Source: Marsupella aquatica
Lineage: Eukaryota; Plantae; Marchantiophyta
Assembly: GCA_973895155.1 (NCBI GenBank)
Contig: OZ316894.1
Coordinates: forward strand, 24,798,709-24,862,708
Direction: 5' to 3'
Length of the DNA stretch: 64,000 nt
Shown here: in pieces, positions 21,531-45,200 of the stretch
Layout of the letters: each line of letters begins with the position of its first letter
Numbering within the stretch: position 1 is the first letter of the stretch
The notes under the pieces: generated by a model
Databases searched by the model: none
What the model saw: the letters and a program-made list of their open reading frames with translations, nothing else
What the model was told of the DNA's origin: nothing
Made by a program: the position numbers and the translations under genes

Positions 21531-24500
21531 TTAGTAGAGAACTTCATCATATACAACATTTTTGGTCAACTTTGCTTCTCCATCTTCATCGTCTGGAAGC
21601 CCGTCTGGAAGTAACACTTTTATCCTTGTAGGACATGTTGCTCTTGAAAAGGCAACATACAATTGACCATGGCTGAAAACCGACTTAGAAAGTTGCAATC
21701 CTACATGTTCTAAAGTTTGACCTTGTGCCTTATTAATAGTCATGGCATATGCCACTCGAACCGGGAATTGGACTCTTCGCAGCATGAAAGGAAGTCCCTC
21801 ATCTGACGTCAACGGAATACGTGGTATGAACGTTATGTTCCTTGCATGTTTGCCTGCAAGAACCCGCGCCTCTATGACACGACTATTGATTGTACGTACT
21901 ATGAGTCGTGTCCCGTTACATAATCCTGTAGTGAAATCGACATTACGTAAAAGAATAACAGGGCATCCAACCTTAAGTACCAGCTTGTGCGGAGGCAAAC
22001 CGTTGGGTGTTAGCGTATTCAAGAACTTAGTATGGTAAAAGTCACGTCCTTCCAATTGATCGGGGCGATCTATACTTAAGAAGGTGTGCGCATCTCCTGC
22101 GAGCCCTTCCAATATTGAACTGTTGATCTTCAGCGCCTCCTCGTTCGTTGGTGCCAATATTGTTCTCTCGCTTAGGAACTTGTCATCAATATTCTCCAAT
22201 GATGGATAAATTGCATGAATCAAGGAGTCGGTGTCAACAATGTTCTCCGTCATGGATGGCGGGACCATAATCATGTTATTTAACGCTCCTTGCTTTGGCA
22301 ATTTATCATCCCCAAGTTGAAGGAGCCATTCTTGGAAAGTCCGGTTCCCAAACTCAATTGAAGTGGATGTACCCTGCGCACGCATATTCTCCATAAGCTT
22401 GAATGTTTTCACAGAGTGCCAAATGTGAGATTTCTTCAAGCATCCTCCCACAATCTGCGCACGGCTTGCTCTTGCTTTCACCGGCAACACTTGTTGAAAG
22501 TCCCCTGCAAATGCAACCACCAACCCCCCAAACTTTATGTTGTCTTCTCTTATGTCGCGAAGTGTCCTATCAAGCGCCTCCACAGCATGTTGATGAACCA
22601 TAGGTGCTTCATCCCACAGAACGAATGTTGTCCTTCGCAACAATTCAGCAAGCTCCGTTTGCTTCTTCACGTTGCATAGTGATTGAGCATTGGGATTGAG
22701 AGGAAGCTTAAACCTTGAATGTGCTGTGCGACCTCCATCCAACAACAAACCTGCAATTCCCGAAAGAGGCCACAGCCAACGCTACGTCCCCATCAGCCCG
22801 CACCCTACGTAGAAGAACATTCTCCACAAAGGTCTTCCCTGTCCCTCCTGGCCCATCTATGAAGAATGTGGAAGCCTCACGACCCCGAACCGCCTCCAAT
22901 ATTGTAGTGTAAGCAATGCGTTGCCCAACATTCAACAACAGCTCCTGCTCAGCCAATTGTTGTTCCAAATCCTTCTGGCGATAGGACATATCCTCCTGTA
23001 TCAATTGATTGGTGTTCGCCAGATCTTCACAAAACTGTTCTGAAGGGAGGGGCAACCCAAATTCACCCAACGTCTTCCCTTGGGTGTGCAATGCCTGTCC
23101 AATTAAATATAGTGCGAAGCTCCTTTGTTGTTCTTCTGAGGGTTCAAGAAAACCCATGCTGAGAAGGCAATGACAACAATCATCACTCAACTTTGAAGCG
23201 TAACTTGTCCATAGATCATAGGGTTGTGTGGGGCCGCCAAAGATGAGGATGGTGATGAACAACCATCGAAGTTGTGAGCCGGTCTGCATGAGACCCGCCT
23301 CGCCAAGACACCTATCCCACTCTACATCATTCTCATACAATCCACGCACGAGGGCGGCCTCTTTGAACGTTGGATGCACCACGTTCTCAAAAGTTTGGAG
23401 ATCTTCAAAACTTTGAGCCCGAGTGACAACAATCAAGAGGGCTCGCAAATAATATCTCTCCCCAGCTGATGGTGCCACAAAGTACATTCGCCCAATGCTA
23501 AACCCTTGTTGACGCAGAGACCATTTCCGTAGAGCCTTGTTCCACGTCCATTCTTGAGGGAAATTAGTGTACGTGACATGGCGTGCCGATTCAAACATTG
23601 CATTTGTCTTGAACCATCCTGTCAAAGTGGTATCCCTGTCCGACTCCCTTTCAACCACATCTATGATGTCTGCATCTTCATTGAACATCACCGCCTGCTC
23701 CCTTTTACAATGTACTTGGAGACGTTGGACAGAAGTACTACTCTCTGCCATTTTAAATTGGAAAATCCGCCACGTCCCTTCCGCCGCAGACACGTAACGG
23801 GCATCAAGATGTGTTTTGATTTCATCTCGTGACTCTCCAACTTCCACCGTCGCCCGATCATGCCCCTTATATACATACTTGTATAAGTACTTAATTGCCT
23901 TAATGGAACAACAAATCTCCACGTTAATGTGAGCATTGTATTTCATGCTCAAGTATGGGCTATAGGGAACAACCCACTTGTTGTCAAACCTAAATCCATT
24001 ATTGTCCTTGCTGAATGACTGGCCATTGTCTCACCTCCGATACAAAGGATAGCCTCCATCCCCTTAGGGGGTTGACTATCAAAAATCTTAGGAACCACGT
24101 GCGATCCAAAATAGGTATTTTTGGCAGATTTTAACTAAATTTTTAAAAAGCGTAGGAGGCAAAAGAAGGTATTATAAACTCATGTTTATAGAATATTCTT
24201 TAATATATATCCTTTATAAAGTAAAATAGGTTATTAATATTGAAAATAGAGAATATTCTTATAATATTTTTTTAATAAAATAGGTATATTTATATTAGGC
24301 TAGGATCGCACGTGGTACCCCAAAATATACGCTTAGTTAACCCCCCGAGTCCATCCCCAAATTGTGTCTCTGAGGAGAATTCGCAAGGATATTTCTTAGT
24401 GCACTTCCCATCTTCCATGCAGGGCGAGTTTGGATAACCTATGCCACACGGACCATGGACCATGCACTTGGTTATTGTCTCATGAAGTCAAGGATATTTT

Positions 24501-26846
24501 ACTCTATCTGGGATCTTCGCACACACCAACTCATCCACCTCGCCAGGGGTGCGAATCTTGTGCTGCTCTGCCAAAATGATCAACATGTGGGCATGGGGCA
24601 ACCCACACTTTTGGAACTCTATGACATACATAGAGGCAACGGGCCTTCCTAAGACCCCTTGGCGAACCTCTGCTAACAGCGCCCTTAGCTTCAGTTTGAA
24701 GCATCGTGCCACAATCTCATCCCGGTCGGCTGGACTTTGAACCTCAAAGCACTCTGCTTTGATCTTCGGCCATTCTAGATTGCAAGGGAACGTGATGAAG
24801 AGATCTGGCGGGCCGTATGTGCGTACGACAGCCATGGCATCCTGGTATGCTTGGGCCATGCTACGTGTGCTACCACCATAAGTAGAGGGCAGGATGAAAG
24901 TCTTGCCCAACTCACTTGTGCGTGCATCTCCCTCGTGCACGGCATCTTGAAGACCCGAATATAGGTCAGTTCGCAATTTTTGTTGATTATTGCGGATATA
25001 CGTCAAGCGTGTTTGATCGATGCATGCGTAGGCATCAACAATGGACTGCTTTAGGAGCCGTCCACCACGAAGGAGCCAATCATCATTGCATCGTGCATGA
25101 AGATGATATGCAAAGTATTGTAGTTGGGTGACCTTCTTGGACCCGTTACGTCCACTCCTTGCCCCGATAACAGCTTGATGAAGAACCCCGTCACTCATTT
25201 CAAAACCCGTCAATGGGATATCATATGACCATCCATCTTGGCCTCGCGAGAAAAGAAGAACATAGTGGAGTGGTGCATAAGACCTATGCCACTCAGAGAT
25301 CTTACGCAATTGCCCATCTGTTTGCCTAAGGATGATGTCCCTATGGCATACCTCTAAATCTTCATCACCCACCATGACAACGCCGATCTCATCAGCCGTG
25401 GGCTTGTTATAACGTCTTGGATCACTGTCGCGCTCGGCCAGGAGGCGTAAAGATGCCTCTGGCACATCACCCCCCTTGATCCGACTTCCTGCGTTCTTAA
25501 ATAGATGAACATATCCATTATGTTCATGCAACATGTCTTGTAGTTGAGCCAGTATCCTTGGATCCAAGTGCGGCATTCGGTTGAGCCTGCAACAAAAGCA
25601 ATTAGAACCACTCGGGTTGGAGATATATGAAAATGTACCTAAGCAAGATGGAAGAGCAAGTGGTCATGGGATTGGGGAAGGTACCTATTCCCCACTTCAT
25701 TGGCGGTGTCGTAAATGTACAATTGCGCGAATTTGGGTCCTTCTCCTATAGGGGGCAAAAGGCTTCCTGCAAGATGGTACAACGCTCCTTGGATACGAAA
25801 GGAATAAGGCCCTCGACTATTATTGCGCTCATCCACTTTTGCACCAATGGAGGTAAACGCCAAGGCATTGTTATAACCTCTTATGTTGTTGCGGAAATTC
25901 TTCCCAACATTGTCTTGCCTTGTAAGCAAGCTTTGTAGAGGCTCGGGTGGGGCACCAAAAGGAGGCAATTTCACCTTGCCGTCCGCACAACAGGCACTAC
26001 GCCATACGCCCCAAACCATGTCGAGCCAAGTGAGGATCCAACGGCCTTCGCACCTTTGGAAGACGACTGATTAGTTGTGCCCTCCGTCTTCTTCGTGCTA
26101 TTTCTTCTTCGCTCCGCAATGCAGGTGTGACTGGTGCAGCTGCCAAACTCTCCTGGACTTTAGACATAATATCCGGCCCTACATCCGGTTCCCTTTCTCC
26201 ACTTGACAGCTCCAAGGTCCCCTCCACAAAAGTGTCAAATTCACCATCCCCATCGTTGACATAATCTTCTTCAGCTTCATATAATTCCCCCACCGCATGT
26301 TGATCAAACCCGCCATCCATTGCCCCATTGATGAGCCACTCCTCATCAAACAAATGAGTTTCAGTGTGAGTGTGCATCGGTTCCTCTGGCGGACAATCAA
26401 TCCCCATCATCCAACACCCCATTGATAAGCCACTCCTCATCATAGAGGCAAGGTTCCGGCTGAACATGTGATGCTGCCTCATAGGACGCGTTGGAGGCTA
26501 ACTCCAATGGAGGATGGTGAATCCCACTTTCATCCAAAGCACCTTGAATGAGCCATCCTTCATCAAATACATGTGGGTCACAGGGAACCAAGGGTTGGCA
26601 GACCAATGTGCTCGGATCACCAACACTAATATTGGAAATGGCATGGGGCCTTTCCAATGCTTGCCCTTGACCCCGAGCCTCATGATGAAGCTGTCTTCCA
26701 CTGTTCATACGGCAAACCAAGTTTGGTTGAGCGCTCACCTCTGCCTGAACCCCATGAGTTGGAGCCCCCGCATCCCCTCCATTATTCCCAACCACCCCAT
26801 TTTGTTGTTGCTGACGCTGCGCTCGCCTCGCCCTCCGTCTTTCATT
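21531..26846 (-). pseudogene. Helitron RepHel (HUH Rep endonuclease + PIF1-type SF1 helicase), disrupted; first 22 codons displaced to 45872-45807
   Basis: Rep motifs PDLFITFPCN, YVIEFQKCGLPHAHMLI and KYLYKYVYKG. Helicase motifs FIDGPGGTGKT, VLWDEAPM, AGDFQQVLPV, GLCNGTRL, AYAMTINKAQGQTL and HGQLYVAFSR. Intron 25684-25587. Lesions: frameshifts ~26400 and ~22765, apparent deletion ~26000, stops at 24488 and 24031, MITE at 24063. Confidence 0.95.
24063..24349. mobile_element. MITE (287 bp) inserted in RepHel
   Basis: TIR CTTAGGGGGTTGACTA / TAGTTAACCCCCCGAG; subterminal inverted repeat GGAACCACGTGCGATCC (16/17); direct repeat TCCATCCC at 24055-24062 and 24350-24357. Removing it restores CTKKYPCEFSSETQFGDGGYPLYRR. 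Confidence 0.9.
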
Positions 26847-29546
26847 CACTAGAAGAATCCGAGGTGAACTGAGACCGCAATATATGACTCATTTTGGCTC
26901 ATGAGACTTCATTGTGACTCAACGTGACTTGACCCACGCTGTGACCCTTGGAGTTGCAATAGTTGAGACCAAAAAATGGAAGTCACTATTGATACTGGGC
27001 TTTGCAACTTGCTTGATACCCATTTGTGACTGATCTGTGACTTTATTGTGGAGTCTAGCCTTGTTTCGACGTGACTGCAATATGACTTCAGCGAGTCACA
27101 TCGTAAGTCATATACATGACTTACCCGCATTCAACAACGACTAGCGTGTGACTATTTAGTGTCACAGGAGAGACCAATGGAGACCCTGGCCCGCGTCACA
27201 CAACAGAACCATTTGGGACTCTATATACTCATGTTTATAACTAATAAGGTTCACATGCAAGTTATAACCATGACTAATGAACACAGAGGGACAGTTCATA
27301 AGGAGAGAGAGCACTCGACATTACAATACATAGAAACTTGATGTTCTAACTTTAGAAATATAACACATTGAATACAAGAAATGAACATAGTATGAATGAC
27401 ATCCACATGAAACAAAGCATCATATAAGCAGATCCTACATAAAACATTCATAAGAATTAAACACAATCACAATCTTGCTAAAAAATGAAGATCATTTGAA
27501 TTCCAATGGAATAGTTTACAATGTGATCAATGTAATTTAGACAAAACAGGAACTCATAATTGATGACTGTAGGATGAGATAACTGAAAGCACATGCATGA
27601 TACTATGAATCTCCAAGAGGACATGATTCTTGTACTGCTTCTTGACATCTAAAATCTACATAACATGACTCACACTACAAACAAATAATGGCATGACATT
27701 GTTATGGATCCTCTATGAACTTGCTTGGCCATAATACCAAAGAACCTGCAGCATCTCCAAGTGTCTTTTGAGGAGAATCATCATTTGTGTTTGGAATGGG
27801 AAGGACAGCTTTAGGTTTCACTAGTAATGTGACTAACACTACTGAATAACCTGGGGGAATCCTCTTGCCATGGAACGTTGTGGCTTAGACGCAGAATGCT
27901 CCGCTGTGATATTGTCTCCAACTTTTCTAGTGCAGTCTAGGCAATTAGACTGCTTTTGCGAAAACTGCCCTTCTTAAAAGTGAGCAATACTAATAAGCCT
28001 CGGGGGTGGAGCGTTTGTTACGATGGCCGTGGACCTACCGTGGGCTATGGTAGAACACTCTATTGTCTATGATGATTCTGAATCTGCTTGAACTGCGAGT
28101 GGATGTGCTTTAAGGCAAACTTGTCGGAGAAATTAGAATGGGGGGACGGAGCTGTCAGTGCTTAGGTTGTGGCATTTTTGAGATTGTCAAGAGTAATCTG
28201 TGATCTCATTTCTAAACGGTTTGAGCTCCTCTGATGTGCATAGGAATCGGGCTGAGGAAAGCTTTTGGGAGCTATCATCGGAACTAGCTTTCGATCTATT
28301 TCTGCTACTTTTGAATTGGTACTTGGGAAGGCTTTGTATCGTTAAGCACTACAAGATTCACAGGCCAGACCTGCTTGCTAGTATGAGGGGCTTTGAAGGA
28401 ATGTGTGGCCAGGGCTGATTAAGTATGGATTAATTTTGCATTGCCTGAGATACTGAAACTGCCACCCGCTTTGTTTCAATGCCTTTGATATTAATTGTTA
28501 ATATCTCAAGAGGGTCGTCAACTAAGCTGAAAGGAGTCAAAGCTAACTACAAGCTGGCAAATACAGAGAATGCTCCCAAGTCGAGTCAGGAGGAAGTTAC
28601 TAAAACTAGACCTTCACAACTCTCGAAACTGGAAAGTGAAATTCAGCGTGAGACACGTAGCTGAAGGCCACAAGGATAACTATATGGCCACGCTGTCCCC
28701 CATTCAAGTCCAAAGTCCTCTTCAGATTGTCTGAACTCCTATTGAATGTATTGAATAATTATTTCATCACAGAAATTTTCAGAACAAACACGGAAGCACC
28801 AGGGGGCTGAGGATTGGATATTGAGGCTGAAGACATTGAGGTCATAAACTAGGTGTGGTTCGGGTGACAATGTTAGCAACTGATGCTTCTTCAGGGGAAC
28901 TTCCCATGTGCAGTTTATCCACACATGATTGACTTTGGTTCTTGCTGTTTTTCTTTTGGTGTACTCTTGAGTTTGGTGTCACTCTATCCTTTCCTGTAGC
29001 CTCGAAATAGGAACACACCTGCTTAGTGGTCCCCAATCGCCCAATGATTTATAATGACTGTGTCTAGGTGATGTATGCATTGCGTGTTCATTCCAGAAGA
29101 ATGAATATGTACACTTTGCACAAACCTGGACAGATTTTGAATGTTATTTATCTGAGTTTCTGTTTGTGAGCTCTGACTTGGAGCCTTAACATTTGTGTTT
29201 CTGTGGGGCTGAGCAGAGTTTGTTCCGTCTAGAAGCTGCTGTACTGAAGTGATCAGCCTCCGGCTTGGAGGTGAATCTTCAATTTTTTGTGGATCCGAGT
29301 GACTTCTGTCCAGCTGAGTTTTGCTTTGTCGGGACGATTGTGTTTGGCTAAGATGCTAGATTGTGACTTGTCTTCTTGCTTCCAGCTTGTGTATTTTCAA
29401 TTAATAGAAGTTGGGAACGAAGTGATAATTGAATTTCCTTATATTAAGCATCTTCACCTAGAAACTCAATACATAAACTCCAGGATTCCCTCGGGACATA
29501 AAATGAGCCAAATTGTCTCAAAATTGGGAACTTGCACCCGCACTAC

Positions 29547-29889
29547 TCAAACAATTGTGTTGGGCTTGGTGGCCTTGTAAGTCTTCTTTAGCTTTCGCAA
29601 TGGAGGTTGAATCTTGCAGTACGTCAAGGGGAACTTGATCTTTGAATCATGGAACTGCTTGGTACTTTCTCGCTTGCACAGAGAGACAGGGACTGTCGTA
29701 GTCTTCATGATCTGGATGCAAGGGAACCGAACTCTATGACAAGAAGCCATCTCATCATACATCTGCTCTGCAGCTCCGTTTCTTGTGGTATCACAATATT
29801 CCTTGTACATGTTGTGATAACCTGTACGACTCTGATACGTGGACCCAGATACCGAAGTTCTTAATTGTGGTGGGCTTCTTTTCGAAGAT
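29547..29889 (-). pseudogene. RPL18A: Captured last exon of 60S ribosomal protein L18a (eL20) with upstream intron acceptor
   Basis: CTACCAG|[16 protein letters not shown], then a frameshift at ~29839, then [43 protein letters not shown]...[18 protein letters not shown]...KPNTIV*. No upstream RPL18a exons are visible. Confidence 0.9.
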
Positions 29890-30897
29890 CTGGTAGACAC
29901 ATTATTCAGCATTTGCTAACTTCGAAACTAGAAGGGTAACACATTAAACAACAGAGAAACTCACAACATCCTCCTTTGGTCCTTCAGAGTCTGTACTTTG
30001 ATTCTGAAGTTTGACTGAGTTTTTGTTTACTAAAAGAATGTGACTGTGTAAGAGTTCCGTTTGGCAGTGGATTGGTTGAAGCACTTCATGCTAGTGTGTT
30101 GTCCACAGCTCTTCAACTAGCTTTCGTCTTCCTTGTCTTTCACCACTTACGATGACATCAATTCAGCTAAGACCATAGAAGGTTCCAAAGCATCTAACTT
30201 GTAAAATCGCATTCTATTACATCAAGGACTAAGGTGTTGGGTGCCAAAGGAGACAGCACAACAAACACGCTGAAAAGACTTCAGGACTGGGTTCAACAAG
30301 GTAGTGAAGGTGCTTAGAGCCATAGTAAGTATGCATTCTGTATCTTTCTCTGTTGATGTGAGCTTGTGCATAATGGGAGTTGTAGTTGGCAAGAGTTCCA
30401 AATATGAATAGATCCAGAAGTATGTGATCATGTACTTGCTCTATAAAGTTCTGAAGATATAAGCATTTTCTGTTAGACCAGACAACTTGGGAGTTGGTAA
30501 GTGTCACCTGCATCTGAGGGGCTACACCGGGGCATCAGTGGAGGTTCACTTGCACAACACGACAACCAGTGAATTTTCTCTCTATTGCAACCTGCAAGGT
30601 GAGACTTTCGGTCTTTCTGGATGAAAAAACAGGAGTTTAATATGATTGATATACATGTCCGTCGAGAATATGGGTTTATCACCAAGCTCTTTGTCTTAGG
30701 AAACTCATAAACTCAGAATCAAATATGTACTATGCATGTTTCATGCTATGTGTATACTATGACCTGTAGTTGGAACCAAGACAATGAGTGGGAACTGATT
30801 AGTTTAGGTGGTTGCTGTTGGCGAGGCAAGTCGACCTCCTGCTCACCTTGCTCATCAAAGGACGTGAACAGAGGACATCACAACGAAAGCAACACTT

Positions 30898-31347
30898 ATG
30901 GTGAGGACCCGCAACGCTGAACATGTGCGACTTGCACGCAAGGCAGAGATGTTGCGCCTTGAGTATGTCAGACTTGGGATCCTTCCAGCCCAATCTGCAT
31001 GGTACTTTGAGTACCCTGTTGTTTCCAGGAACAACTACAGCCGGCCTCTACCTGCTTCAGTACCCTTCCCGACATCCTTGGTATTTGTGTCTCTTGTACA
31101 TGACCCGCCACAAATTAGGTGCCAAGGGTGTGTACACAGTTGCCAATATGACTGTCCTGCCTGTAGGGCTTCTGGCCCAGAATTGGATGACCGTTCTCTT
31201 GGATGCCGATTTTTGCACAGAGCACAATGTATCATCTGGAACCACTCGCCATCCTGCAGTGTGCCTGGTGATGTCACTTGTCCTGCCCTCCCAGACCCCA
31301 CCACCGGTGACTTTGGTGTCTACACATGTTTGGATCACATGCTCTAG
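30898..31347 (+). CDS. Cys/His-rich hypothetical cargo protein of the CACTA (149 aa)
   Basis: Uninterrupted ATG ORF starting MVRTR, with CQGCVHSCQYDCPAC and further Cys/His; an acceptor-like TTTAG|G lies upstream at ~30806. Confidence 0.4.
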   Translation: MVRTRNAEHVRLARKAEMLRLEYVRLGILPAQSAWYFEYPVVSRNNYSRPLPASVPFPTSLVFVSLVHDPPQIRCQGCVHSCQYDCPACRASGPELDDRSLGCRFLHRAQCIIWNHSPSCSVPGDVTCPALPDPTTGDFGVYTCLDHML

Positions 31348-31962
31348 AGGACCACTTGTCACACCGCATGCACAGACCAGATACCATTGACCTATAGCTT
31401 AACACTCTGACTTCAACACAGAGGATATTTACTTAAAATTTTGATGTATGAGCAATTTTGGGTCCAGGGTTTAGGGTCAACAGTACATAACTTATATCCT
31501 ATTATGCCTGCACTAAGCAAAATATCCTAATTTAAGAGGCTAGCAAACTCGCATAAAAGTCTCTATTGAAAGACTGCTTTCATGACTGCTTTAACCTGGT
31601 GAACATTGCAACGTTGAATGAATTAATGGGCCATGTGATAATATGCAAAATGATTTATGCCTCACTTATTTGTCTCAGCCACTATCATAACCTATTTAGG
31701 ATGTATAAATTTCAACCCTTATGACACTGCTTCATACCAATCCTCTTCGAAGAATGCCTGTTTTACATGTCACGACTATTGTATGTGATTCAAATGCATG
31801 AAATGTTGTTGCAGATCTCCTTTGGTGAATCATAGCCACAATTAAAATTGAGGTGTTGGTGGAGAAATTGTATTAGGGGATCAGTTTTGTGTGTGGGCTC
31901 AACATACCAAAAGTATGTGTGCTCTGCATCCTTGTGTGGCCATTCCAATTCATTGCAGTAGC

Positions 31963-32106
31963 AAATGCCTTTGTACCTTAAATGCTAAATATATTTTACT
32001 TTCTGTGCAGTCTGCTAAATTGTAGAGTCTATCTAAATGCCTTTGTACCTTAAATGCTAAATATATTTTACTTTCTGTGCAGTCTGCTAAATTGTAGAGT
32101 CTATCT
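31963..32106 (+). repeat. Perfect 72-bp tandem duplication just upstream of the PHD ORF
   Basis: AAATGCCTTTGTACC...GTAGAGTCTATCT at 31963-32034 and 32035-32106. Confidence 0.9.
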
Positions 32107-32117
32107 CATGCGCAGGC

Positions 32118-32936
32118 ATGGCACGGCCTAAAATTCAAGCCAAAAAGCGTGTGACAGAGGTGAGAAACACAGGTGTACTTGGGGCAGATGCTACTAACTT
32201 CTCTGCAAGTCAGATTTTCCAGAAGGCAGCTCATTGTTGTGCCATTTGTGACGATGGTGGGGGCCTGGTCATTTGTGAGGGCCCTTGCATGAGGCATTTC
32301 CACCTCAACCCGGAGTCTGACCTTGCTGCAGAAAACAACTGTCCAGGGGTGGGCCTCCCGTCAACACACGAGGGAGACTGGATGTGCACTGATTGTTTGG
32401 AGAAGCAGGCTAAGTGTGCACAGTGTGGGAAGTTGGGGTCCTATGAGGGCTCTGTTGATGCTGCAGCAAATGTTAGGAAATGTCCAGACCATTTTTGTGT
32501 GAGATTTTTCTGTTTTGAGTGTTTGCCTGCTCATGCCACAGCTTGCCCACTTCATAGGTGCAAGGCATGTGGTGAGCATGATGATGACTACTGGACTGAC
32601 ATAGTCCACTGTGCTAGGTGTCCCACTATGTGGCACTATCATTGAATGTATCCTCCTTTATAACAAAATATGTATGTGCCATGACAAGTTGGTTGCACTT
32701 CATTTCACCACGGATATGGATTTTGTAGTATATATTCAAACAATGTCCTGCATCCGTGCAGGTGCCTAGTACGTATTGTTCACATATCCCTTGTACCTAT
32801 CAAAATCGGACCTGAGCACCAGTGGGCCAGATCAACTCAAAAAGCAGGAATTTTGTTGTCCTTGTATTGTCAGGTGAACCCATTCTTCCAAAATTCACTG
32901 TCATCACGTAGAGTGTGTGTACATGGAGCCTGGTAA
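32118..32936 (+). CDS. EDM2/NSD-type composite PHD-finger protein inside the CACTA (probably two exons, donor mutated)
   Basis: CAICDDGGGLVICEGPCMRHFH...WMCTDC...KCAQCGKLGS...VRKC...FCVRFF...CPLHRCKAC...HCARCPTMWH follows the EDM2 PHD cluster as I recall it (CAICDNGG..CCEGSCLRSFH...HQCFICKNLGSSD...CPLHKC..C...CRRCPKSYH..C). A CA|TTGAAT (32641) to CAG|G TGC (32762) join would complete H-x-x-C. Confidence 0.75.
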
Positions 32937-33795
32937 ACGTAGAAAGTGTGACCACCCAGCAGTGTTTACAGGGGTCAGAGCGATTTTGGTCCATGGCCAG
33001 CATGGGTTGACCAAAGTGCATTGGCCAACTGTACAGAAACGATTCTCTGAGCTCCATGGCACTGTAGTTCAGGACATCACTCCAGAGACTACACATGTTG
33101 TTGCAGGGACATGGCTATCAGTGATAAATAAGTGGTCATGGTCCTACATGAATTCTGCAATTACTAAGCAAGGCCTAAAAGTAGTTGAGGCCTCTTGGAT
33201 CACAGATTCCATAGCACATAAGATTGTACAGGATACTGAGCAATATGAGTTGTGGGAGGATGAAGAAGCTACTGCATCAGCTTGGGCTGAACAAGAAGTC
33301 TGGGAAGCAAAGGCACGGCTTGCTGATCTCCAATATGGACCTGTACTCAACAAAGGACAGAGCTCTACAAGGCTGAAGAGTATGTTGGTTGAGGAGACGA
33401 AGCAACCAACCCCCATTCTGAAAGGGCTGAGCATGGTATTTGTGGAGGCGGGAATTGGAGAGGTTAAGTGCAAAGTGTACAAGTCCACAGTGCTTGACCT
33501 AGGTGGGACAGTGGAGGAGAATATAACAGAGGACACCACTCATGTCATTACTAAGTCATATCCCAAAGCCTGCCGCAAGTTTGGGAAGGGAGACATTCGC
33601 TTTTATGTCATGTCCCATAATGTGTTTGTGGTTTCATATGCTTGGCTTGTGGAATCAGTAGCAGCTGGGAAGCGTCAAAACCCAATGGACTATGATCTTT
33701 TTGAGGCCTGGCCACGGAAGGGTCAGGATCCTTACAGAGAGGACTATGAGACAACAAGTGAGGAATGGGTCATTAGCGATTCTGAATCAGAGTGA
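32923..33795 (+). CDS. Tandem BRCT-domain protein (two Pol-lambda-like BRCTs) inside the CACTA
   Basis: Open 290-aa frame. Two repeats carry BRCT hallmarks: F/L-x-G, GG/HG-TV, TTHVV/TTHVI, and W-I/L-x-D/E-S...Y-x-L. The second repeat (VFVEAGI...LGGTVEE...THV...KFGK...YAWL.ES..AG...N...Y.L) resembles the plant DNA polymerase lambda BRCT from recall. Confidence 0.8.
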   Translation: MEPGKRRKCDHPAVFTGVRAILVHGQHGLTKVHWPTVQKRFSELHGTVVQDITPETTHVVAGTWLSVINKWSWSYMNSAITKQGLKVVEASWITDSIAHKIVQDTEQYELWEDEEATASAWAEQEVWEAKARLADLQYGPVLNKGQSSTRLKSMLVEETKQPTPILKGLSMVFVEAGIGEVKCKVYKSTVLDLGGTVEENITEDTTHVITKSYPKACRKFGKGDIRFYVMSHNVFVVSYAWLVESVAAGKRQNPMDYDLFEAWPRKGQDPYREDYETTSEEWVISDSESE

Positions 33796-34282
33796 GGAGT
33801 AGTAGCATCAGTTTGGACACAAGTTTTTTTGTATAAATCAGATCATTGAAATAAATGTGATCTTTGAACTAATGTACCTTGTTATGGTTGGTGGCAGTTG
33901 GGCTTATTTTACTGTTGGCGGATTGTTGTTTCCTACTGCCTGGGGGTGTCACTGTAAACGTACATGCAGAGGCGGTACATTTGAGGACAGCGGAGGAGGT
34001 GGTGACACCCTCCAACATTTAGGAATTTTGTGTCATTCACTTGACAATAGGTACACTACTTGCGAACCTGTTTTTTTCTTTTGGGGTGGTTTAGGGTTTG
34101 TGAGAATTTAGTACACGGTATGTTAACTCTTTTGGCAGATACAGTCAGGGATATATGGAACACAAATACCACCATTAGGCATCCTTGTTCACTACTGTCC
34201 ATGACTGCAGAGCTCCCAGCCTGTTACAATGCACCCTGGTCACCACCCTCCCCAGACCTAGCCCAGGGCACAGGCACTGCCT

Positions 34283-37200
34283 TTGCATCATCCCACAAGG
34301 ATATCACGCCATGATAATAAGCTTTGGCAGCGTGAAAGGTTACGAACCAGACTTTCAGGAGCCAGTAGGATGAGATGTCCTTGTGCAATCTGCCAAGGAT
34401 CCCGTACCAGGGGTCTGAATGAGGTTTGGCGGCATATCGCGGTTCATGGAAGAGATCCACGACATCGAGTTTGGAATGATCCTGCAGAGGGTGATTCTTC
34501 CGACGAGGAGTGGAGGTTAGAATTTGATACTGCCAATGCTGCAAGACGGGCAAGTGAGGTTCTGCTTGGTGCATTTGAAAATGTTGTAGCTGGTCTCTGT
34601 GGGTTGTCAGCTCTCCAACGGGATGGTGCTCAGGTAGCACCACGTGACGAAGGAATTCATGTGGAAGAGATGGTGAGAGACATCTTCCAAGACTTGGATG
34701 CATTTCATGATGGGCTGGACAATGAAGAGGATACGGCTGCAAATGCAAGTGTGCCCCCTGTCGAAGAGCCTCTTGATGAGTTTGAGATAGGGCAGGAAAC
34801 CCCTGGGCATGATGGGATGTTTGGCTCTCCCCTGCAAATACAGGAAGGCAGGAAGTCTTTGTACCCCGGTAGCAAATGTTCTAAACTGGGATTTGTCATC
34901 ATGTTCCTGAACATTTGCGGCAACCACAATGTCCCCAACGTTTTGGTTTCTGAGTTGTTGGCATTCTTGCGAACAACTGTGCTACCAGATGGTAATATTT
35001 TGCCCAAGAACATGTACGAGGCAAAAAGATGCATATCTAATCTTGGATTGAACTATGATTCGATCCATGCCTGTCCTGATGGGCATGTTCTTTTCAGAAA
35101 GGAGTATAAAGAATCGTTGACATGCCCTAAGTGTGGGAAGCACAGGTATCGGAACTCAGGAAAGTCTATGGTTCCCGCCAAGGTACTTCGTCATTTTCCA
35201 CTCATTCCCAGACTTCAGCGGATGTTCAGAAGCCGTGCCATCTCGGAGATGATGACTTGGGCAACTGACAAGAAAAGTGATGATGGGCTACAACGACATG
35301 CTGCAGATTCAAGGCAATGGAAACTCATAGATGAGATGTATCCCGAATTTGCTGCTGAGCCGAGGAATGTCAAACTTGGGCTGTCATTGGATGGGGTAAA
35401 CCCATTTGGAGACAAGAACAACAAATTTTCGTGCTGGCCTGTAACTATTTTGAATTATAACCTTCCTCCTTGGATGACTACAAAGCGATTTTTTGTTCTG
35501 ATGGTCCTACTGATACCAGGGCCAGACAGTGTTGTATCTGCCAACATAGATGTGTTTCTGGCTCCCCTAGTGGAGGAATTGAGAAAGCTTTGGGAGGAAG
35601 GAGTTCTCACATATGATGTCCTATAGAGGCTTGGGAGGTTAAACCCATTCATCCTTAGAGCCATTGTCATTCTGACTATAGCTGACTACCCAGCCCATGG
35701 GATGATATCAGGCCAAATAACAAAAGGATATTGTGCTTGTACTATCTGTGGGCGCAATGTCACCAGTGAGTACTCCAGAGCCCTGCAGAAAGTGATATAC
35801 ATGCATGGGCCATCGTCGTTTTCTGAAGGCAGATCACCCTTACAGAGAAAGACAGGCACTGATTGCACACTTTGGCAATGAGATTGAGCAACGTGGACCC
35901 CCGGCACGAGTGACCAAAGAGGAGATCAGGCAGTGGGGAGCACTGAGGGATGACTATATCAAACGAGGGGGCAGGGAAGATGGAGTGAGTGATCCAATAA
36001 AGCGATATGGTGTAAAAAGACTGAGCATATTGGACTTGGAGCTCAAGTACTGGAGGGTAAGCCTCTTGGAGTTGATGCTAATTGGGATACATGTTTTGGT
36101 TCAGAGCATGTGCATTCATTTCGAAGAGAGAGACTAAACTTGAGGCATTTCCTGACGCTTTTGCATTGCAACGATGCAGGAGTTTGAGCCAAGCAAACAT
36201 AACATTGATGTTATGCACATTGAAAAGAATATTTGTGAGAGTCTACTCAGATTCTTGTGTGGAGAGAAAGACACTGGTTCAGTGAGATTGGATCTTGAAC
36301 AGAGGGGAATGAAACCCCATCTTTGGTTGAGGCCACATGCCCACAGAGCTGATGTGCTCTTGAAGTACCAAGCGCCCTATGTTCTGACAGACACAGAGTG
36401 GGAACTATTTGTGCAGAGGTTGAGTTCTTTGAAGGTTCCTTCAAACTATGGCAGTGCTTTCAAGAAGCATATCATGACTAGAAAGCTTGGTAGTATGAAA
36501 AGCCATGACTACCATATGTTGATGCAACAGGTGTTGCCTTTATGCCTGAGGGGCCTGTTGCAGAAGCCTGTTCGTACTGTGATCATGCGACTCAGTGATG
36601 TGTTTCGTCGTATTTGTGTGAAGGTTTGGGATGAAACACACTTCCCACAACTGACAGAAGATGTCGCTCAGGTGCTGTGTGACCTGGAGATTTATTTTCC
36701 TCCCGCATTTTTTGATGTCATGACCCACCTACTTGTCCATGTTGTGGAAGAGCTACACCAATTTGGGCCTGTGAGTGCTCGTTGGTTGTACCCTTTGGAA
36801 CGGTACATGAAGCTACTCAAAGGTCACGTGAGAACATATTACAAACCTGAAGCAAGCATGGCTAAAGGTTACATCAAGGATGAGACTCTGGGATTTCTGA
36901 CCGAATACATAGCACAATATGAGCATGTGAAGACCAGGGTGTGGAATTCTGATGAGGAGGAAGGGGTGATAGGTGAAGTACTGGAAGGGGCTGCAACCAC
37001 AAAGAACCTGACCATATCTATGAGAGACTTGACACATGACTTTGTATTGCACAACACTGTGGTGATGGAACCCTGGATACAGTGAGTGCATACATGTGCT
37101 ATAATCCAGTTCATGAGCTTAAATGTTGTGTTCGTGTGGTTTTCTCCTTCGGCCTGTTCATGTTTACCCAAGCTAATGCTGTGTGGTTGTTCGTTCAGGG

Positions 37201-37964
37201 AGTATGAGTCATTGAAGGCGGCCCATCCCACTGCAGGAACAACTTTTCCAGGTTTCATGGAGTGGATCAGAGTGGCAATTAGAGAGCATCACGAGACCCA
37301 CCCAGACATGGATGCAGATGTTTACCTACTGTCTAATGCCCCTAGCCTGAAAGTGAAGACTTACAAACGGATGAGAGCATATGGGAATCACTTCCGAGTG
37401 AAGGATGGTGACAGTGCCTACAGGGTGACGAATGACTGCGGGCTCATCACTGTATTTGAGCAAGAGAGCCACAATCACGACAGGGCCTGGATGGAGATGG
37501 GATATGTGGGAGAATTAGTTGACATATGGGCTCTGGACTATGGGGCGGTGTCCAGTCCTGTGATTCTTATGAAAGGTTCATGGGTGCGGCAGGATTGGCT
37601 TGGTAACAGGGCTACCATGAAGAGAGACAACGACGGTTTCTTGCTGGCCAATTTCAGAGGGAAATTGCCCGAATGGTCTGAGCCATTTGTGTTTCCTAGT
37701 CAGGTGGAGCAAGCTTTCTTCCTGGATGTGGAAGACTCCCCAGGTTGGCGTGTAGTGTGTCATAAATAGGCCAGGCAACGTCGGATGGAAGGATCAAACC
37801 TTGAGTTTCATTTACACTCTCATAGTGCCTTTGATCGTCGGCGTTCAGACCAAGTGCCTGTAGTTCATGATAGCGGGGACTTCATTCCTGTGACAAGGGT
37901 AGATGCATTTGCTGAAGGAGGCGAATTCAGAGATGCAGATGCCAACAGTGTGCCTGTGCCATGA
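34283..37964 (+). pseudogene. CACTA transposase TnpD/Tnp2 (Transposase_21, DUF4218, DUF4216), disrupted
   Basis: Motifs CPCAIC, IHACPDGHVLFR...CPKCG, HAADSRQWK...EPRNVKLGLSLDGVNPF, DVMHIEKNICE, FFDVMTHLLVH...WLYPLERYM and EPFVFPSQVEQAFF. Introns 36057-36179 and 37082-37198. Premature TAG at 35624 and 37767; CATG duplication frameshift at 35800-35807. Confidence 0.95.
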
Positions 37965-38120
37965 GTAATGTGAATTGTTTGCATGGACATTAGTGAGGGG
38001 AAGGATGTGTAATAAAGTAATTCTGAAGCAACACAGATGTATGGATGGATGCCTGGTGATTGTGGTTGCATTGTGTTATACGGGGTGACCATAGATGACA
38101 TGTTTTTGTGGTCCAATAGG

Positions 38121-41100
38121 ATGGAACAGAGTGACACAGAGATGTGTGAGTATGAAAGGAAAGCTATGGAACAACGAGCATACGTGAAAGCCAAAATCGC
38201 AGAACTGGATCTGAAAAAGGATGTGGCTGAATTGTAAGGGAACGATTCTAAACTACACCCCTCCGCTGAGTGTGTGTGACATGAATAGTTCAATGTGGCA
38301 CTGAAATTGTGACTGTATTCTCATATTGGAATGTCGCAGAGCCACAGCATTTTCAAAGAAACAAAAGGAGTACGCAAGAAGGGTGACCAACACTATCTCT
38401 GGGCCTGTGCGTTGGAGTGACAGGTTGAGCAAGAAGGTCGTACCTACAATGGCAGAATGTGGAGATGACATTGATGCTGCACAGGTGGGTGCAGACACTA
38501 GACAAGAAGATGCAGATGATGAGTATTTTCCAGAGGAAATGGATGAGGATGGGGGTTATGAAGATGAATACATTGCAGAGCAGCCCCAAAAGAAACATGT
38601 AAGTAGTTTTCCCAACAAGGTTTTGAGTTAAAAACTCTTGTTTAGAGGTTTCATATGTTCAGTACTACACATATGTACCTTGCTTAGTTCCTGACATTGT
38701 AGTTGGTGATGTGATGCAGCGTCCTGCCAGTTCTGTTTTGCCTTCGAAGCCTGTGCATGCACCATACCAGCAGGGGGGGCTGACCTCTGATCAAGGTTGG
38801 CGAGGTGGTAGTAGTGGTAGATCCCAGGCTGGTGCCCAATACTATGGCAGGGGGCAAGCTCTAGGTTATGCCCGTGGTAGAGGCAGAGCAGGTCCAAACC
38901 CACAATCTCGTGGGTATGGACGTCCACCTCAACCATGGGGATGTGAGTATATATCTATATGCCAGTTCTTTGTGAAGGCATGGCACTCCTGAATTTCAGA
39001 CTGCATATCAATTTTTGACATTGTTTGGGATGTATGGGATTCAGACAACATGAAATTCTGTCCACCTGCCATTGCATGCAGATTCTGCCCAACCTGATTG
39101 GGCAAATGCTAGTAATGATCAGTTCCAATGTCCACAAGGACAGACATGGGTTGAACCAGGTTGGGAGGATGGTGGTGGGTCGTGGAATGAACAAGGTTGG
39201 GAAGGTGGTGAAGGTAATTGGCAGGGATATCAAAATTCAGTACCTACAAACGTTGGAAGAGGGGCAGGTAATGTCTGATCTTGTCAGCAATGGAAGAACT
39301 CATTATATGTGGAGTCCATTCACGTGGGGGGGACTCTGCACATGTATAATATGTGTGCAGGTTGGACAGTCGAACCATCGACTCAAGTATTCACTAATGC
39401 CCCTATGCAGATGCAGCACGGAAGGGGGACAGGTATGTCGGTGAATGTTCAGTTGTTTTCCTACAGTTTGTACTTAGTTTTCAGTACATATGTTTGCACA
39501 CACATACCTAGAAAGTGACATCATCCGGCCCCTGTACTAGGCTGGACAGGTGGTCCAGGGTCGCAACAATTTCAGAGTGCAGTCCCTGCACAGGCATCTA
39601 CAGGCAGAGCTACAGGTATGTATGTTTGAAGAATTTTTCTTGAAGTGAAGCATTGAATGTTGCCGTCATCCATTCTGCTATATGTAGTTCTCAAGCATGA
39701 ATGGCATTGTATTTTCCCAGGTGGCTTCAGAACCCCAGGTAGGGTGAATGAAGGGGTGGCCAATACAACGCCCAGTACTACCGAGAGCAGTGCACGAGGG
39801 GAGGTGACAAAGAAAGGGAACGTAAAGTTGAATGAGAGACAATGGGTGGATGCTGAGTGTCCTCGCAAGAACCGATGGCATGCTGATTTGAAAGCTGAAG
39901 TATTGCGTTGGTTAGATGTGAGTGTTATTAATTTTAAAAACCAGCATCCAAAAGATTGGAAGACTGTATGTGAAAATGTTGCTGCCAAATGGAATTATGT
40001 GGGCAGTGATGATGGCGTGGACATAGGTTGCCTAGAGAGTACAGCAGGTAAAATTATCAAGCAAGAGAGGTGGAGAATGCATAAGGCTTGGAAGGAAGGT
40101 GGGGAGAAGCCAGATATGCCTCCACCAGCCAGTTGTGATGATAAAGTGTGGGCAAGGTTAGTAGCTTATTTTGTAACAGATGCTTCAAAAAAGAAGAGTT
40201 CACAGATGACCGAGGCCAGGTTGAGTGTTCAGAACCCTAATCTGACAGGAAGGACCGGCACTGCACCGACAGCTAAACGTTTGGTAAGAATGAATGGCCT
40301 AGCTATGTAATTTATGCTACACTATGTACTATTTTTTAGTGTAAACCCATACATGTAAACTTTGTTTTTTAGTGTACGTTCCCTGAATATTGATCGATAA
40401 CTTGTGTTTGCCATGCATGTGCAGAAAGCCCAATTGGGGCAAAGCCCTTCAAAAGAAGAGTTGAGGGCTGAAATTGTGAACACCCGGGCTCAAGAGGGTG
40501 CATCTGAATCCTCCAAGCATGTAAGTTATATGAGTTCTGATTGGTAATTGAATGACCTGTGTTGAATTTCAGGTGTACACTGTATATAACATTGATTGTG
40601 CATATATTGCCCAACATTTCATATGGAGTGATTGAACCTATACCCCTATGTCATGTAGGGAGGTGGATCTTCACTTACAGAGATAAGTGGTCGTTTGAAG
40701 GCTGTCGAAACATGTCTTCCAGAGATCAATGAACGTTTGAATTCATTGACGTACTGACTTGTTCCATGTGAACTTCAAGACATTAATGGAAGCTGTTGTG
40801 TCGGTGAGAGATAAAATTGATTCCAATTCTGCAGGAGTTCCACCATCACCACTTGAGGTGGCAAAGTCGATGCACTCTTCTGGCATGCCAACGACATGTA
40901 GGCTTGAAGGTAAGGCCTTTACAACTGTGTGGGATATGATTATTAAATGTATAGTTTGAATTGACATTGTTTGTTGAATGTGTTATTTTCGGTAACATAT
41001 ATTGTGGTTGTTGTGTCCATAGAGAATAAGACAGGTGCTACAGAGAAGAAGTATGAGAACCTGGAAAATACTCGCTGTAATTTAGAGGCAACAAAGTTGC

Positions 41101-41666
41101 AGTCTGTACAAGCAACTTGTTTGACAGAGGGCAGTCAACCATGTTTGGATGAGGATGACATTGGCAAGGGAGTGGATGATATCAATGTTGGGGCAAATGA
41201 GGATATCAGCAAGCATGACAATGATACCATTGAGCCAGATTCATGCTATGTAGATCTTGACTCCATTGCAGAGATAAATGATTTGCAGAATGTATCATTC
41301 TCAATGACAGGTGTGCCTCTTGTTAAGATAAATCCAACCAAAGAGTTAGTTGGTATGACACTCCCAGGTGATGAACCTGCTACTGTGACAGTCCTAACAG
41401 AGGAACCTACTGAGCCTAGCTTCACTACTGTGAAGAGAGGAAGCATGCGCACACGAAGCAAGTCTGCTGGTGGGAGCAAAGCCACGTCAAAGGTTTCATA
41501 CAAACCTCCAAGAACAGTGCTGGCAGAAAGATCTAAGGTGGAAGTGGGGAAAGCACCTAATGCTGAGGGACAAAGTGGCTTGTTAGCTGTTGATGAGAGT
41601 GGAACACGAGTAGGATTTGCCAGAGTGCAGGTTGGTTCCGGGAGAGCGACGCCGTTCAGGAGATAG
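38121..41666 (+). CDS. CACTA TnpA/Ptta-like (Transposase_24-type) multi-exon protein
   Basis: Phase-compatible exons 38121-38233 and 38340-38598, several small Gly/Gln-rich exons, core exon ~39721-40283 (WARLVAYFVTDASKKKSSQMTEARLSVQNPNLTGRTG), and last exon to the stop at 41666. Canonical position downstream of TnpD. Confidence 0.7.
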
Positions 41667-42104
41667 ATGCGCGAGAGAGTGAAGATGGTGGGGAGCGGAA
41701 GACGGGTTGGGACTGGACCCTTGGTGCCGGTGGGTAATATGTGGGGTTTCAATGAACAATGGGCCAGTTTGAGGAGGATTAAGAAGCGCGCACCCCACGT
41801 TCTTGTGTGGTGGTTGGGTGGGGTTTTGTTTGATAGAAGAAGAAATCACCATTCTCTTATGGAAGAAAGAAAATCGCAGGAAACAGTGGGCGGGAGAACA
41901 AGGCATGTAATAGAGAACAACGAGGCATGTAATAGAGTACTTGCTGTTACTCTAACGGTGCACGAACACTCACCTTTGTCTTCCGCTTTGTCTGCTATGG
42001 CCAACAAATCCCAAAGCGCTGCCGAGCTTGGTGGTTGCTTGATGGTTGAAAGTGCGTAGCTCACGTCCCTACCTCAATGTCCAACTCAATGTGGGATGCA
42101 ACAG

Positions 42105-42210
42105 CTTCTCTTGGTCGCATCTCCTCTTCGTCGCATCTCCTCTTCGTCGCATCTCCTCTTCGTCGCATCTCCTCTTGGTTGCATCTCCTCCTTGTCGCAG
42201 CTCCTCTTGG
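42105..42210 (+). repeat. 16-bp tandem repeat (TCGCATCTCCTCTTCG), about 6 copies
   Basis: Units are directly visible. Confidence 0.8.
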
Positions 42211-45200
42211 GGTTCACAGCTAGCGCGCAGCAGCGCTCGATGGTTGACAATGCGCAGCTGAGCTAGGAGAAGAACTGAATGACTGTGGCTGCTCTTCTCT
42301 GCAGTCCAAGCACCCGGCTGGCAGAATGCTACGACACCTGAAAGAAGCGCACTTTCAGCTGCATGGCCGGGACTAGTAGAAACCGTTGACGGTGAAGGGC
42401 ATTCTCGGTTTGGACCTCCTCTCTCCAACCCCTTCTAACCCGCACCTCCAAAGTTGATTCGGGAGTTGATTAGCAATAACGTCGCTCCTATGCCAAAGGC
42501 ACCAAGAACCAAGCCAAAAGAAAGGGTTTAGCAAAGGGAGAGCGATGTAGTGTGCACTGATCAATGACTCAAAGTTGACGTCGAACCCTCCATTGCGCTA
42601 GCTATTGGCGATTGCCACACAGAGAGCAGCCGTATGTAGCAAACTGTAATGCAGATACTCCCGTCAAAGGTCGATGCGTCACACTCAGCTTTAGAGGAAG
42701 GATAAACGATTGAGCAGCATTGCATTGTGCAAAAATGTTGGAGAAGCACATTGCTTCCAGGCCCGAGCTCACCTCCTTCCCCTTTCACCACTTCGCAGCT
42801 CCTCCAAGAGACATTCACTCAAGGGCACATCACGCAGTTGCTTGCCCTCCTCAGAAGCTCAACACCACAGCCACCAAAGTTGTCAGCTCCCACTGCAACT
42901 GAACAGGTCACTACCAAAAGCCCGCTCCCACCGCAGCTGAACAAGTGAGCGACACAAGAGTGTAGGACCTCCGCCAAGCCCAGGGCAGCAGCTCAATGAA
43001 ACTCAATTTGCAACTCGTCTCACTCTCGCTCTTGCTGCAAAGAAAAAAAAGCGCAGGTCAAACTCCTTTGTGGCCTCAGTCCCCACCGCTTTCCCCAAGC
43101 TATGGACAACTACTAGCAGCTTGCGCTCACAGCATGACATCCAGGTCTTTAGCCAACTGCACACTGGAAACCGAGAGAAGTGAGCGCAGTCACGCAAGGC
43201 CAAAAAAGACCAAAGTTGAGCCAAAGCAAAACTTTACTAATGTATTTACAGTCAAGCATGAGGGCAATCAGGTAAGCAGAAGACCACGCATTCCCGCAAA
43301 GAGTTGTAGGTTCTCGTCACTTCCTCGCCTCTGTATAGAAGGTCGATCGTTGTATCTCGGGTACCCAATGATAGTGGAGATGAATGCAAATAGGCCTCAC
43401 CAATCGCCAGTCATCCGCGATAAACCTCCCGACAACCTTGCTCCTATACACCTTAGCACCCGCGTTGTCACCACAGGAAAGACGAATGTAAGATTTAGGG
43501 CCCACCTAAACCCTATAGTGAGATTGCAGTCGACAATGGGTCATATAGCAAAGGTCGAAGCTCCAAGCCCTACGCAATGACATGAAATCCCACCTCCAAA
43601 AGCGCTAAATGTATTGACTGAGTGCGATCAGGTGCAAGAGTCGAGAGCAACTGAGGAAAAGTGCATTATCGGGCGCAAAGTGTTTGGCCTTGGATTCCCT
43701 TGCAGAAACGTGAAGGAAAACCCTGGTGGTAGCCGTTGACACTTTGTGCAATTTTCCTTTACAAAATCCGTTTACCCTAAACATTGAGTCGACTGGAAGG
43801 ACTCGTTCATAGGCATTCTGCAAGCACCTAACACATTTAGACGTAAGTTCACAGTTAGGATTAAACGATAACTAAGACCAAGGGTGCATGCATTTTTTTT
43901 GGGGGGGGGGGGCTTTTAGTTGGGTATTTTGGGTATAGTCATTGGGTTAGATAAATATCCTAAGTCACCCAGATGGCAAAAAACAACACCTACCCTTAAA
44001 CTCACCCTCCTCAAGCATAAACCCTCTGAAAACCCATTGGACATTTGGAGTCATTGGCAAAAGAGGGTTAAATGGATGAAGAATGGACCGGGGGGGATGG
44101 ATGCCGACGATCCAATGGTCCCTAAACCCCCATCCCCTTAACATGCAACCCCCGACCCTTGACATCAAACCCCCCCTAAACCCCCTTTAGTGAAAACCCA
44201 GCCACCCCCTAGCCTTGACATATAAACCCCCTAAACGTCTTGACAACTCGACTGTGGCTAGACTATCTTTGCAATGCCAAGGGCCATTTTTAGAGTGCCG
44301 CTTGCAAGCTCAGGCTCTCAAGATCCTCCCAAGGCAGCAAACAAGTTAGGGTCCCTAAACATGTTCCTTTACCCTAAATCATTGCGTCACTATTTCAATC
44401 GAGTGTTCTTCGGCTGGACAACCCCCTAACCCTAAACCCACACCCCCTTGAGACCGGTACAAATCTACCTTTGTGCATCTCAGCCTTTTATAGATGGAGT
44501 TAGTAATCGATCCCTCCGTAGTCCACCCTCCATGAACCTCACTCCAAACCCTTTTTGGTCACAAATAAGGCCATTTATTGCGTTATGCCCCTTGCTATCA
44601 CCCTCTTTATAGAATTACCCCTCCTCAACATAAGTGAACATTACCCATGATGTGCTAGACTATTCACCATTCACAAAGTAGCAAGGTTACTTCTCATAGT
44701 CTTTTAGTGAACTATAAAACACTAATAGTCTTTTGTAGTCTTCAACAAAACCGGTGCAATGGGTGCGAGTCGTTTCAAGTATGGAAAAAGGACTTAGTGG
44801 GCTTAGTCCTATAAGGTATGGTCTAAATTGCCCCGGTTTCTACTAGTGTGTGAAAACTTTCCCGCTCATGAAACAACAAGACTCTCACTTTGCGGGCGCA
44901 CTCTCTCTTTCTCCAAGTCCCTCCACAAAAGCTTTTGGCAGTCAAAAGTTTAGGGCAAAAGCTATTGCCAGTTGTATCAACTTGCAATTGCGCAACATGG
45001 TTCATTGGAAGAGGGCTTCCGATAGAGAAATTGATGCAACGGCATTGCATTGTGCACTTAAGGAAAAAGAGGTCCTAAATTGGGCCCTTCAATATTCCCA
45101 TATGAAGGGGGTTCCATTTGATATTGGCTAATTATGGGGTATATATGCAGAGCAAATTTTTAAAATGAGTTAGTGGATGAAGTGAGTTTTAATATGTGTG

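Follow-up and report, generated by a model that had tools for sequence, protein, structure and literature searches.

Structure of the locus

The window analysed here is a stretch of 64,000 nucleotides from the liverwort Marsupella aquatica (contig OZ316894.1), and it contains a CACTA element of 18,957 bp at 26847-45803. The 11-base end motif is found at just two places, 26847 (+) and 45803 (-). The terminal inverted repeats (TIRs), recognized by terminal motif and arm pairing, lie at 26847-26876 (5' TIR, +, starting with CACTA) and 45774-45803 (3' TIR, -); their 31-nt arms are 81% complementary, and an ATT TSD adjoins each of them (26844-26846 and 45804-45806). These results bear out the preliminary description of this DNA, which had placed the genes discussed below inside CACTA ends defined by TIR and TSD. 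The CACTA inverted termini and 3-bp TSD, together with a TnpD bearing Transposase_21, DUF4218 and DUF4216, assign the element to CACTA/EnSpm.

Two genes stand in front of the transposase. The first, identified by Pfam, PDB and its relatives, encodes an EDM2-type PHD module with a basic N-terminus (32118-32645, +), which is 175 aa long in this copy; a perfect 72-bp tandem duplication found by repeat search (31963-32106, +) lies immediately 5' of its ATG. After a spacer (32646-32922) comes an intact tandem-BRCT ORF of 290 aa (32923-33795, +; Pfam matches and open frame), comprising BRCT1 (about 32962-33258), a 53-aa linker, BRCT2 (about 33418-33708) and then an acidic tail. The ATG of TnpD at 34370 is on the same strand, 575 bp 3' of the BRCT ORF. 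The arrangement reported earlier, a PHD ORF and an open 290-aa tandem-BRCT ORF co-oriented about 0.5 kb before TnpD, was thus confirmed.

In this copy, stops at 35624 and 37767 together with 4 extra bases near 35800 break the frame of TnpD itself (34370-37964, +; Pfam matches to Transpos_assoc, Transposase_21, DUF4218 and DUF4216). Downstream lie an exon of a TnpA-like gene (39657-40310, +; Pfam Transposase_24, E 1.6e-4, under the cut-off) and a nested insertion that has inverted CACTA-like ends of its own (42372-44848) and was recognized by its end motifs and by a lower contig depth than that of the element core. Upstream, at 29550-29915 (-), is an intronless fragment of RPL18A (eL20), identified by Pfam and PDB matches and by its frames, the frame being broken near its 5' part. 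Overlapping frames of 159-161 aa at 30868-31390, one of them Cys-rich and without a Pfam match, lie where the contig depth of the element is highest and are possibly a third cargo gene.

Outside the element, a Helitron Rep-helicase gene in pieces (21531-26497, -) adjoins the CACTA insertion on the left, and repeats of 162-168 bp lie to its right (46210-46857). Further to the right, at 48486-51185 (+), there are adjacent frames of 521 and 377 aa with one stop between them and no Pfam match, which are perhaps retrotransposon-derived. Two host-like genes were also seen, an F-box/LRR exon (5480-6409, -) and a Pro/Gln-rich frame of 609 aa without a Pfam match (16207-18036, -).

Copies of the element in sequencing contigs

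Five sequencing runs from three studies contain at least half of the words of 31800-35600, and four of them were compared; these four cover 30/30 bins. Small shares only are present in runs X6-X9, which lie outside the comparison. The runs (X1, X2 and so on below) were selected by their match to this stretch, and one of them may be the window's own source. In X1 the contig depth was 1799 for the BRCT contig (one difference from the window), 1554-1782 for the TnpD contigs and 242-327 for the nested insert, depth not being equal to copy number. This depth suggests a similar degree of repetition for the BRCT gene and TnpD; among the contigs listed, none covers PHD, BRCT and TnpD together. The preliminary description had considered the case that the cassette exists in this copy only, and the contigs show instead that it is not confined to this copy. 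An artefact or single-copy oddity was rejected on the same contigs.

Family contigs are 0-1% from this copy, and the CACTA family looks young. The 4 extra bases that TnpD has near 35800 are missing from almost the whole contig depth of X1, X2 and X3. Contigs of X1, X2, X3 and X5 contain opposite-strand joints of 27881-27885 with 41638-41641 and of 29587 with 41869, and in other copies the interior appears to have been turned round or rearranged with respect to the left end. At 33960, between BRCT and TnpD, X1 and X2 show loose ends and a contig of X3 begins, which makes this position a second junction; the 575-bp spacing between BRCT and TnpD may therefore be specific to this copy or subfamily.

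The PHD gene belongs to a separate short clade

Three NSD-like PHD models match the PHD ORF in order (E 2.7e-5, 0.0048 and 0.01), all under the Pfam cut-offs, and in the PDB the ORF matches NSD2. The ORF consists of 2.5 atypical PHD repeats in an NSD-like order, the last unit being incomplete in this copy and complete in relatives; full-length relatives have 220-245 aa, and the 175 aa encoded here lack the last ~50 aa. A search of 1.84 billion representatives returned 216 matches, of which the best 8 are all short (131-245 aa) and 43-61% identical, and on this ground a recent copy of a host gene was rejected. Likewise, near-identity to a host gene, which had been raised as a possibility, was not what we observed: the module is ~35-45% identical to long host-type PHD proteins.

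To place the module we built a tree from 66 of the 124 rows that have the PHD1 motif, with the 58 lower-ranked rows excluded and six frameshifted tails trimmed. The 18 short PHD rows make up one side of a branch with an SH-aLRT of 99 and a long stem, outside land-plant EDM2 and with an unsupported sister. A profile of the short family scored EDM2-like proteins at 93-113 bits (top 25 rows) and four CHD/NSD-like proteins at only 47-72 bits. An EDM2-type tail motif was present in 4/6 full-length short members and 63/90 long hits, compared with 0/4 CHD/NSD-like proteins, and the best named long matches are EDM2-like proteins, liverwort ones among them. Taken together, the profile scores, the tail motif and the separate clade indicate that the PHD module is EDM2-type but is not EDM2, and the EDM2-like character first proposed for it holds. 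In the short family, Cys columns are 94% conserved versus 41% for other columns. With the separate short clade and the divergence, these conserved Cys also uphold the proposal that the cargo is remodelled and not a raw or recent host copy. Many of the clade rows are truncated or frameshifted and 11/18 are shorter than 200 aa, as expected for decaying copies of an element.

The clade differs from the long proteins just in front of PHD1. An acid lies within eight residues before the first Cys in 73/74 long host-type proteins versus 1/18 clade rows. A His occupies position -2 in 17/18 clade rows versus 3/74 long proteins, a contrast that is partly circular because a motif at that place had served to select the clade initially. 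When aligned with AIRE, the clade His stands opposite an acid of AIRE. That acid in AIRE binds unmodified H3K4, and the acidic patch binds the H3 tail. On the role of the acidic pocket residues nothing was found in PMC12266144. Loss of the acidic patch in front of PHD1 may have altered histone binding or abolished it, and it weakens a reading in which the short-clade PHD plainly reads H3K9me2.

The stop at 32643 and the question of a fusion

The PHD frame ends in this copy at a TGA (32643-32645). The preliminary description had proposed a second PHD exon overlapping the BRCT ATG, and with it a spliced or frameshifted PHD-BRCT fusion in which the stop would come from a mutated splice donor at 32642. 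This proposal has some appeal, in that a GT at 32642 joined to the AG at 32760 would yield W-H-Y-Q-C-L, which fits the WHxxCL motif, and in that the frame 32685-32936 does overlap the ATG of the BRCT ORF. The contigs, however, continue past the stop in frame and with no intron. In X1 and X2, which come from two studies, three contigs apiece depart from the window after 32644 and stay in the PHD frame; their continuation reads C-L-K-E/D-R-Q-A-E-G-Y, and the relative P0007 has C-L-K-D-S-Q-V-S-G-Y. Read by hand, the X1 and X2 continuations differ at 4/30 bases, all third positions and 3 of them synonymous. Four X5 contigs begin with different sequence and match the window from 32639 onward. The 6 bases in common, 32639-32644, point to a likely microhomology deletion in this copy, visible as contig loose ends, whose junction generates the TGA. 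We conclude from the contigs that the C-terminus of this copy's PHD protein was likely lost in this way, and the stop at 32643 is best read as a deletion junction rather than a mutated splice donor.

The proposed exon was also compared with the conserved PHD tail. PHD-tail profiles compared with the window in six frames did not rank the frame 32685-32936 among their 12 best pieces, and the spacer that includes it has no PHD-tail match, while 6/6 leave-one-out controls were recovered at E 9e-7 or better; the second exon and the fusion were rejected on this result. In addition, the BRCT relatives begin at their own Met, full-length PHD relatives stop directly after the tail, and a search for a longer BRCT form gave 1 match, an insect protein at E 1.2, which is weak evidence. 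The missing tail match and the in-frame contigs make the fusion a very improbable reading, and below we treat PHD and BRCT as two genes.

The tandem-BRCT gene

PF00533 matches the BRCT ORF in 2 stretches (E 2.1e-13, 50.7 bits, cut-off 21.3), and the two BRCT halves are 24% identical to each other. We found two relatives, P0001 and P0002, which represent 2 and 3 unnamed members. They are 294 and 295 aa long, 60% and 54% identical to the ORF over the full length and 53% to one another, and they have the same starts and ends as the ORF. A profile search at near length revealed no BRCT clusters beyond these same 2, related BRCT loci were absent from metagenome, viral and prokaryote collections, and the ESM Atlas yielded nothing but generic BRCT clusters under 0.9. 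The length range searched thus contains 2 BRCT clusters, compared with ~15 for PHD, so joint travel of the two genes need not be widespread. Loose ends at 33225-33258 in X2 and X5 read in frame as a diverged sister BRCT gene, and one of the changes equals P0002.

BRCT2 may resemble the BRCT domain of plant Pol lambda. The human Pol-lambda BRCT (2jw5) was the last of 38 PDB hits of the ORF (E 1.1), in a comparison that held no plant Pol-lambda sequence, and Pol lambda was absent from the longer-form, near-length profile and ESM Atlas searches with BRCT. As regards a phosphopeptide-binding tandem BRCT of BRCA1 type, whose two domains pack closely and form a phosphate pocket, the ORF has the 53-aa linker and weak matches to BRCA1 (E ~0.003-0.01). 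AlphaFold2 models scored low, with pLDDT 35 for the whole BRCT protein and 37 for BRCT2.

Several comparisons address constraint on this gene. Invariant columns amount to 98/196 in the BRCT cores versus 2/24 in the linker loop (Fisher p 5.6e-5). When we simulated neutral change to the identities of P0001 and P0002, the frame stayed open in 1/1000 and 0/1000 runs, a test that is biased because the protein database lists only open frames; the contrast between cores and linker is independent of that bias. Moreover, the observed substitutions are milder than the simulated ones (BLOSUM mean -0.03 and -0.22 versus -0.53 and -0.57, sd 0.15 and 0.14). The sequence comparisons for both genes argue that PHD and BRCT are under constraint, probably as purifying selection.

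Resident genes and captured cargo

The RPL18A fragment serves as a contrast to the two genes. It is close to plant eL20 (Pfam E 3.4e-18; best PDB eL20 match E 6e-48). High identity to the host and neutral decay, the profile of Pack-type neutral cargo, are seen in this piece and not in PHD or BRCT. The observed/expected ratio of CpG, which is noisy in such short stretches, was 0.18 in PHD, 0.24 in BRCT, 0.40 in TnpD, 0.56 in the RPL18A piece and 0.71 in the host F-box exon. The low CpG of PHD and BRCT fits a long residence in methylated element DNA. Judged by these properties, PHD and BRCT look like old residents and RPL18A like recent raw cargo. Across the CACTA genes (32118-41666) CpG is depleted and CHG is not (o/e 1.1-1.3); the Helitron at 21531-26497 is mildly depleted for both (0.71 for CpG, 0.66 for CHG).

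It is conceivable that the CACTA element captured stand-alone PHD-only and BRCT-only genes of the host and that these hitch-hike without benefit, as RPL18A does. The element does take up host sequence, the RPL18A fragment being an example, and with family contigs so close to this copy the open BRCT frame found here proves little. On the other side, none of the 15 short-clade PHD clusters looked up had an annotated-genome accession, while the matches that carry names are the long EDM2-like ones. CpG is strongly depleted, many relatives are broken and contig depth is high, all of which suits genes borne on an element, and the X1 and X2 variants differ mostly at synonymous sites. We therefore consider passive cargo unlikely.

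It is quite likely, in our judgement, that PHD and BRCT are accessory genes selected on the transposon. The genomic setting of the relatives bears on this point. A scan for loci related to PHD gave 16, all distant (27-61% over short stretches) and none with BRCT, TnpD or TnpA matches; in the related-locus scans for both genes no diverged PHD or BRCT relative was found beside a transposase, so selection on the relatives may be host selection.

A possible role in anti-silencing and repair

We propose that selection on the transposon has probably kept both genes of this element, one for a PHD module of EDM2 type that stands alone and one for a protein with tandem BRCTs. By analogy, a PHD-only protein without the RFD, the methyltransferase-like parts and the acidic patch could imitate EDM2 or be its decoy within the ASI1-AIPP1-EDM2 pathway. 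By such mimicry or titration it may allow full-length transcripts of the element's long genes to be made through H3K9me2 chromatin. The double BRCT, which is catalytically empty, might hold factors of end joining or of the damage response in place while the element is excised and inserted.

If the two genes are selected on the transposon, functions in anti-silencing and repair are somewhat more probable than other functions. As a whole, two separate transposon-selected accessory genes with anti-silencing and break-handling roles are our best reading, which we put forward tentatively, as nearly an even chance. A more specific version, in which a plant CACTA lineage turned an EDM2 reader into a mimic that stands alone and has a rewired histone pocket, and joined it with a double BRCT that recruits end joining, as a two-gene toolkit for counter-silencing and repair that is not known from any DNA transposon, is possible but doubtful.

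The same two genes could instead serve insertion. The PHD module would then steer the transposase to a given chromatin state and the BRCT pair would link it to the transpososome. Steering of insertion by chromatin state is familiar from the PHD of RAG2 and the chromodomains of chromoviruses. Both genes are co-oriented and immediately 5' of TnpD, the zinc ligands are strictly conserved, the altered pocket residue suggests a new specificity, and this copy appears to adjoin a Helitron and tandem repeats, all of which would suit steering. EDM2, the closest host relative, is nevertheless described as acting on the processing of transcripts and the control of silencing (PMC7472560, PMC7529245). Insertion steering is in our estimate improbable, a shade below passive cargo, and we retain two accessory genes for anti-silencing and break handling as the preferred reading.

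If this reading is true, a host chromatin reader from the heterochromatin read-through pathway would be carried by a transposon, which would be a new route in the arms race between them, and a transposon-borne BRCT adaptor would bear on the break repair of cut-and-paste elements. The PHD and BRCT proteins are small and easily assayed. A natural PHD-only clade with an altered pocket offers a means to work out what the PHD block of EDM2 recognizes.

Comparison with known systems

In the openly accessible literature searched we found no description of a CACTA with a PHD finger and BRCT, or with EDM2 cargo. PHD, BRCT and EDM2 are absent from the main text of an atlas of Arabidopsis transposon products (PMC13547354) and from that of a survey of Spm structures (bioRxiv 10.64898/2026.08.24.746577), where some accessory domains among the 962 structures are unclassified and may contain such modules.

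EDM2 is the nearest host system. H3K9me2 is reported to be one of the marks that its PHDs bind, and EDM2 together with ASI1 and AIPP1 favours distal polyadenylation through heterochromatin (PMC7472560, PMC7529245); transposon silencing is altered by EDM2 (PMC3632883). The protein has an N-terminal RFD, acidic domains and a methyltransferase-like ELP domain (PMC7529245). The short PHD family shares with it the block of two and a half atypical PHDs and the EDM2-type tail motif. In contrast, the short proteins have PHD matches only, at ~225 aa versus 1000-1600, with no DNMT1-RFD; their PHD2 has a Cys for the host His and ~20 residues fewer, and the acidic patch before PHD1 is lost. The module also belongs to a separate clade and lies inside a transposon.

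For the BRCT gene the comparison is with plant Pol lambda, whose BRCT binds Lig4 and XRCC4 and which has been tied to excision-site repair (PMC4444747). The two have the BRCT fold family in common, but the element protein has two BRCTs and no polymerase.

Pack-CACTA elements carry captured host fragments between CACTA termini. Host-derived sequence lies between CACTA termini here as well, and the RPL18A piece is of this type. PHD and BRCT differ from such cargo in being far from any named host gene, in having their own starts and, as far as sequence can indicate, in being under purifying selection.

Known anti-silencing factors of transposons are DNA-binding (VANC, TnpA) or enzymes (TET/JBP). 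VANC of the Mutator-like VANDAL elements is transposon-encoded and linked to anti-silencing (PMC5735166). Like VANC, the genes described here encode accessory proteins distinct from the transposase. VANC belongs to another superfamily, however; it binds specific DNA motifs and causes demethylation, whereas here there are a PHD and BRCTs with no known DNA-binding part, and no VANC-related Pfam match was found in the window. TnpA of Spm/CACTA is reported to derive from the helix-turn-helix domain of the transposase (bioRxiv 10.64898/2026.08.24.746577). It is likewise an accessory regulator of CACTA elements, and this element has a TnpA-like exon downstream, but PHD and BRCT come in addition to it, lie upstream and derive from the host. 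TET/JBP genes are carried by fungal EnSpm and other DNA transposons, with escape from silencing as their proposed role (PMC12730594). They resemble the present case in that a host-type chromatin gene stands beside a transposase of the CACTA group. They differ in being enzymes and in fungi, whereas here the modules are a non-catalytic reader and adaptor, in a plant. The known kind to which our observations belong is thus that of transposon-encoded accessory chromatin factors, and the pair of PHD and BRCT genes is a new form of these.
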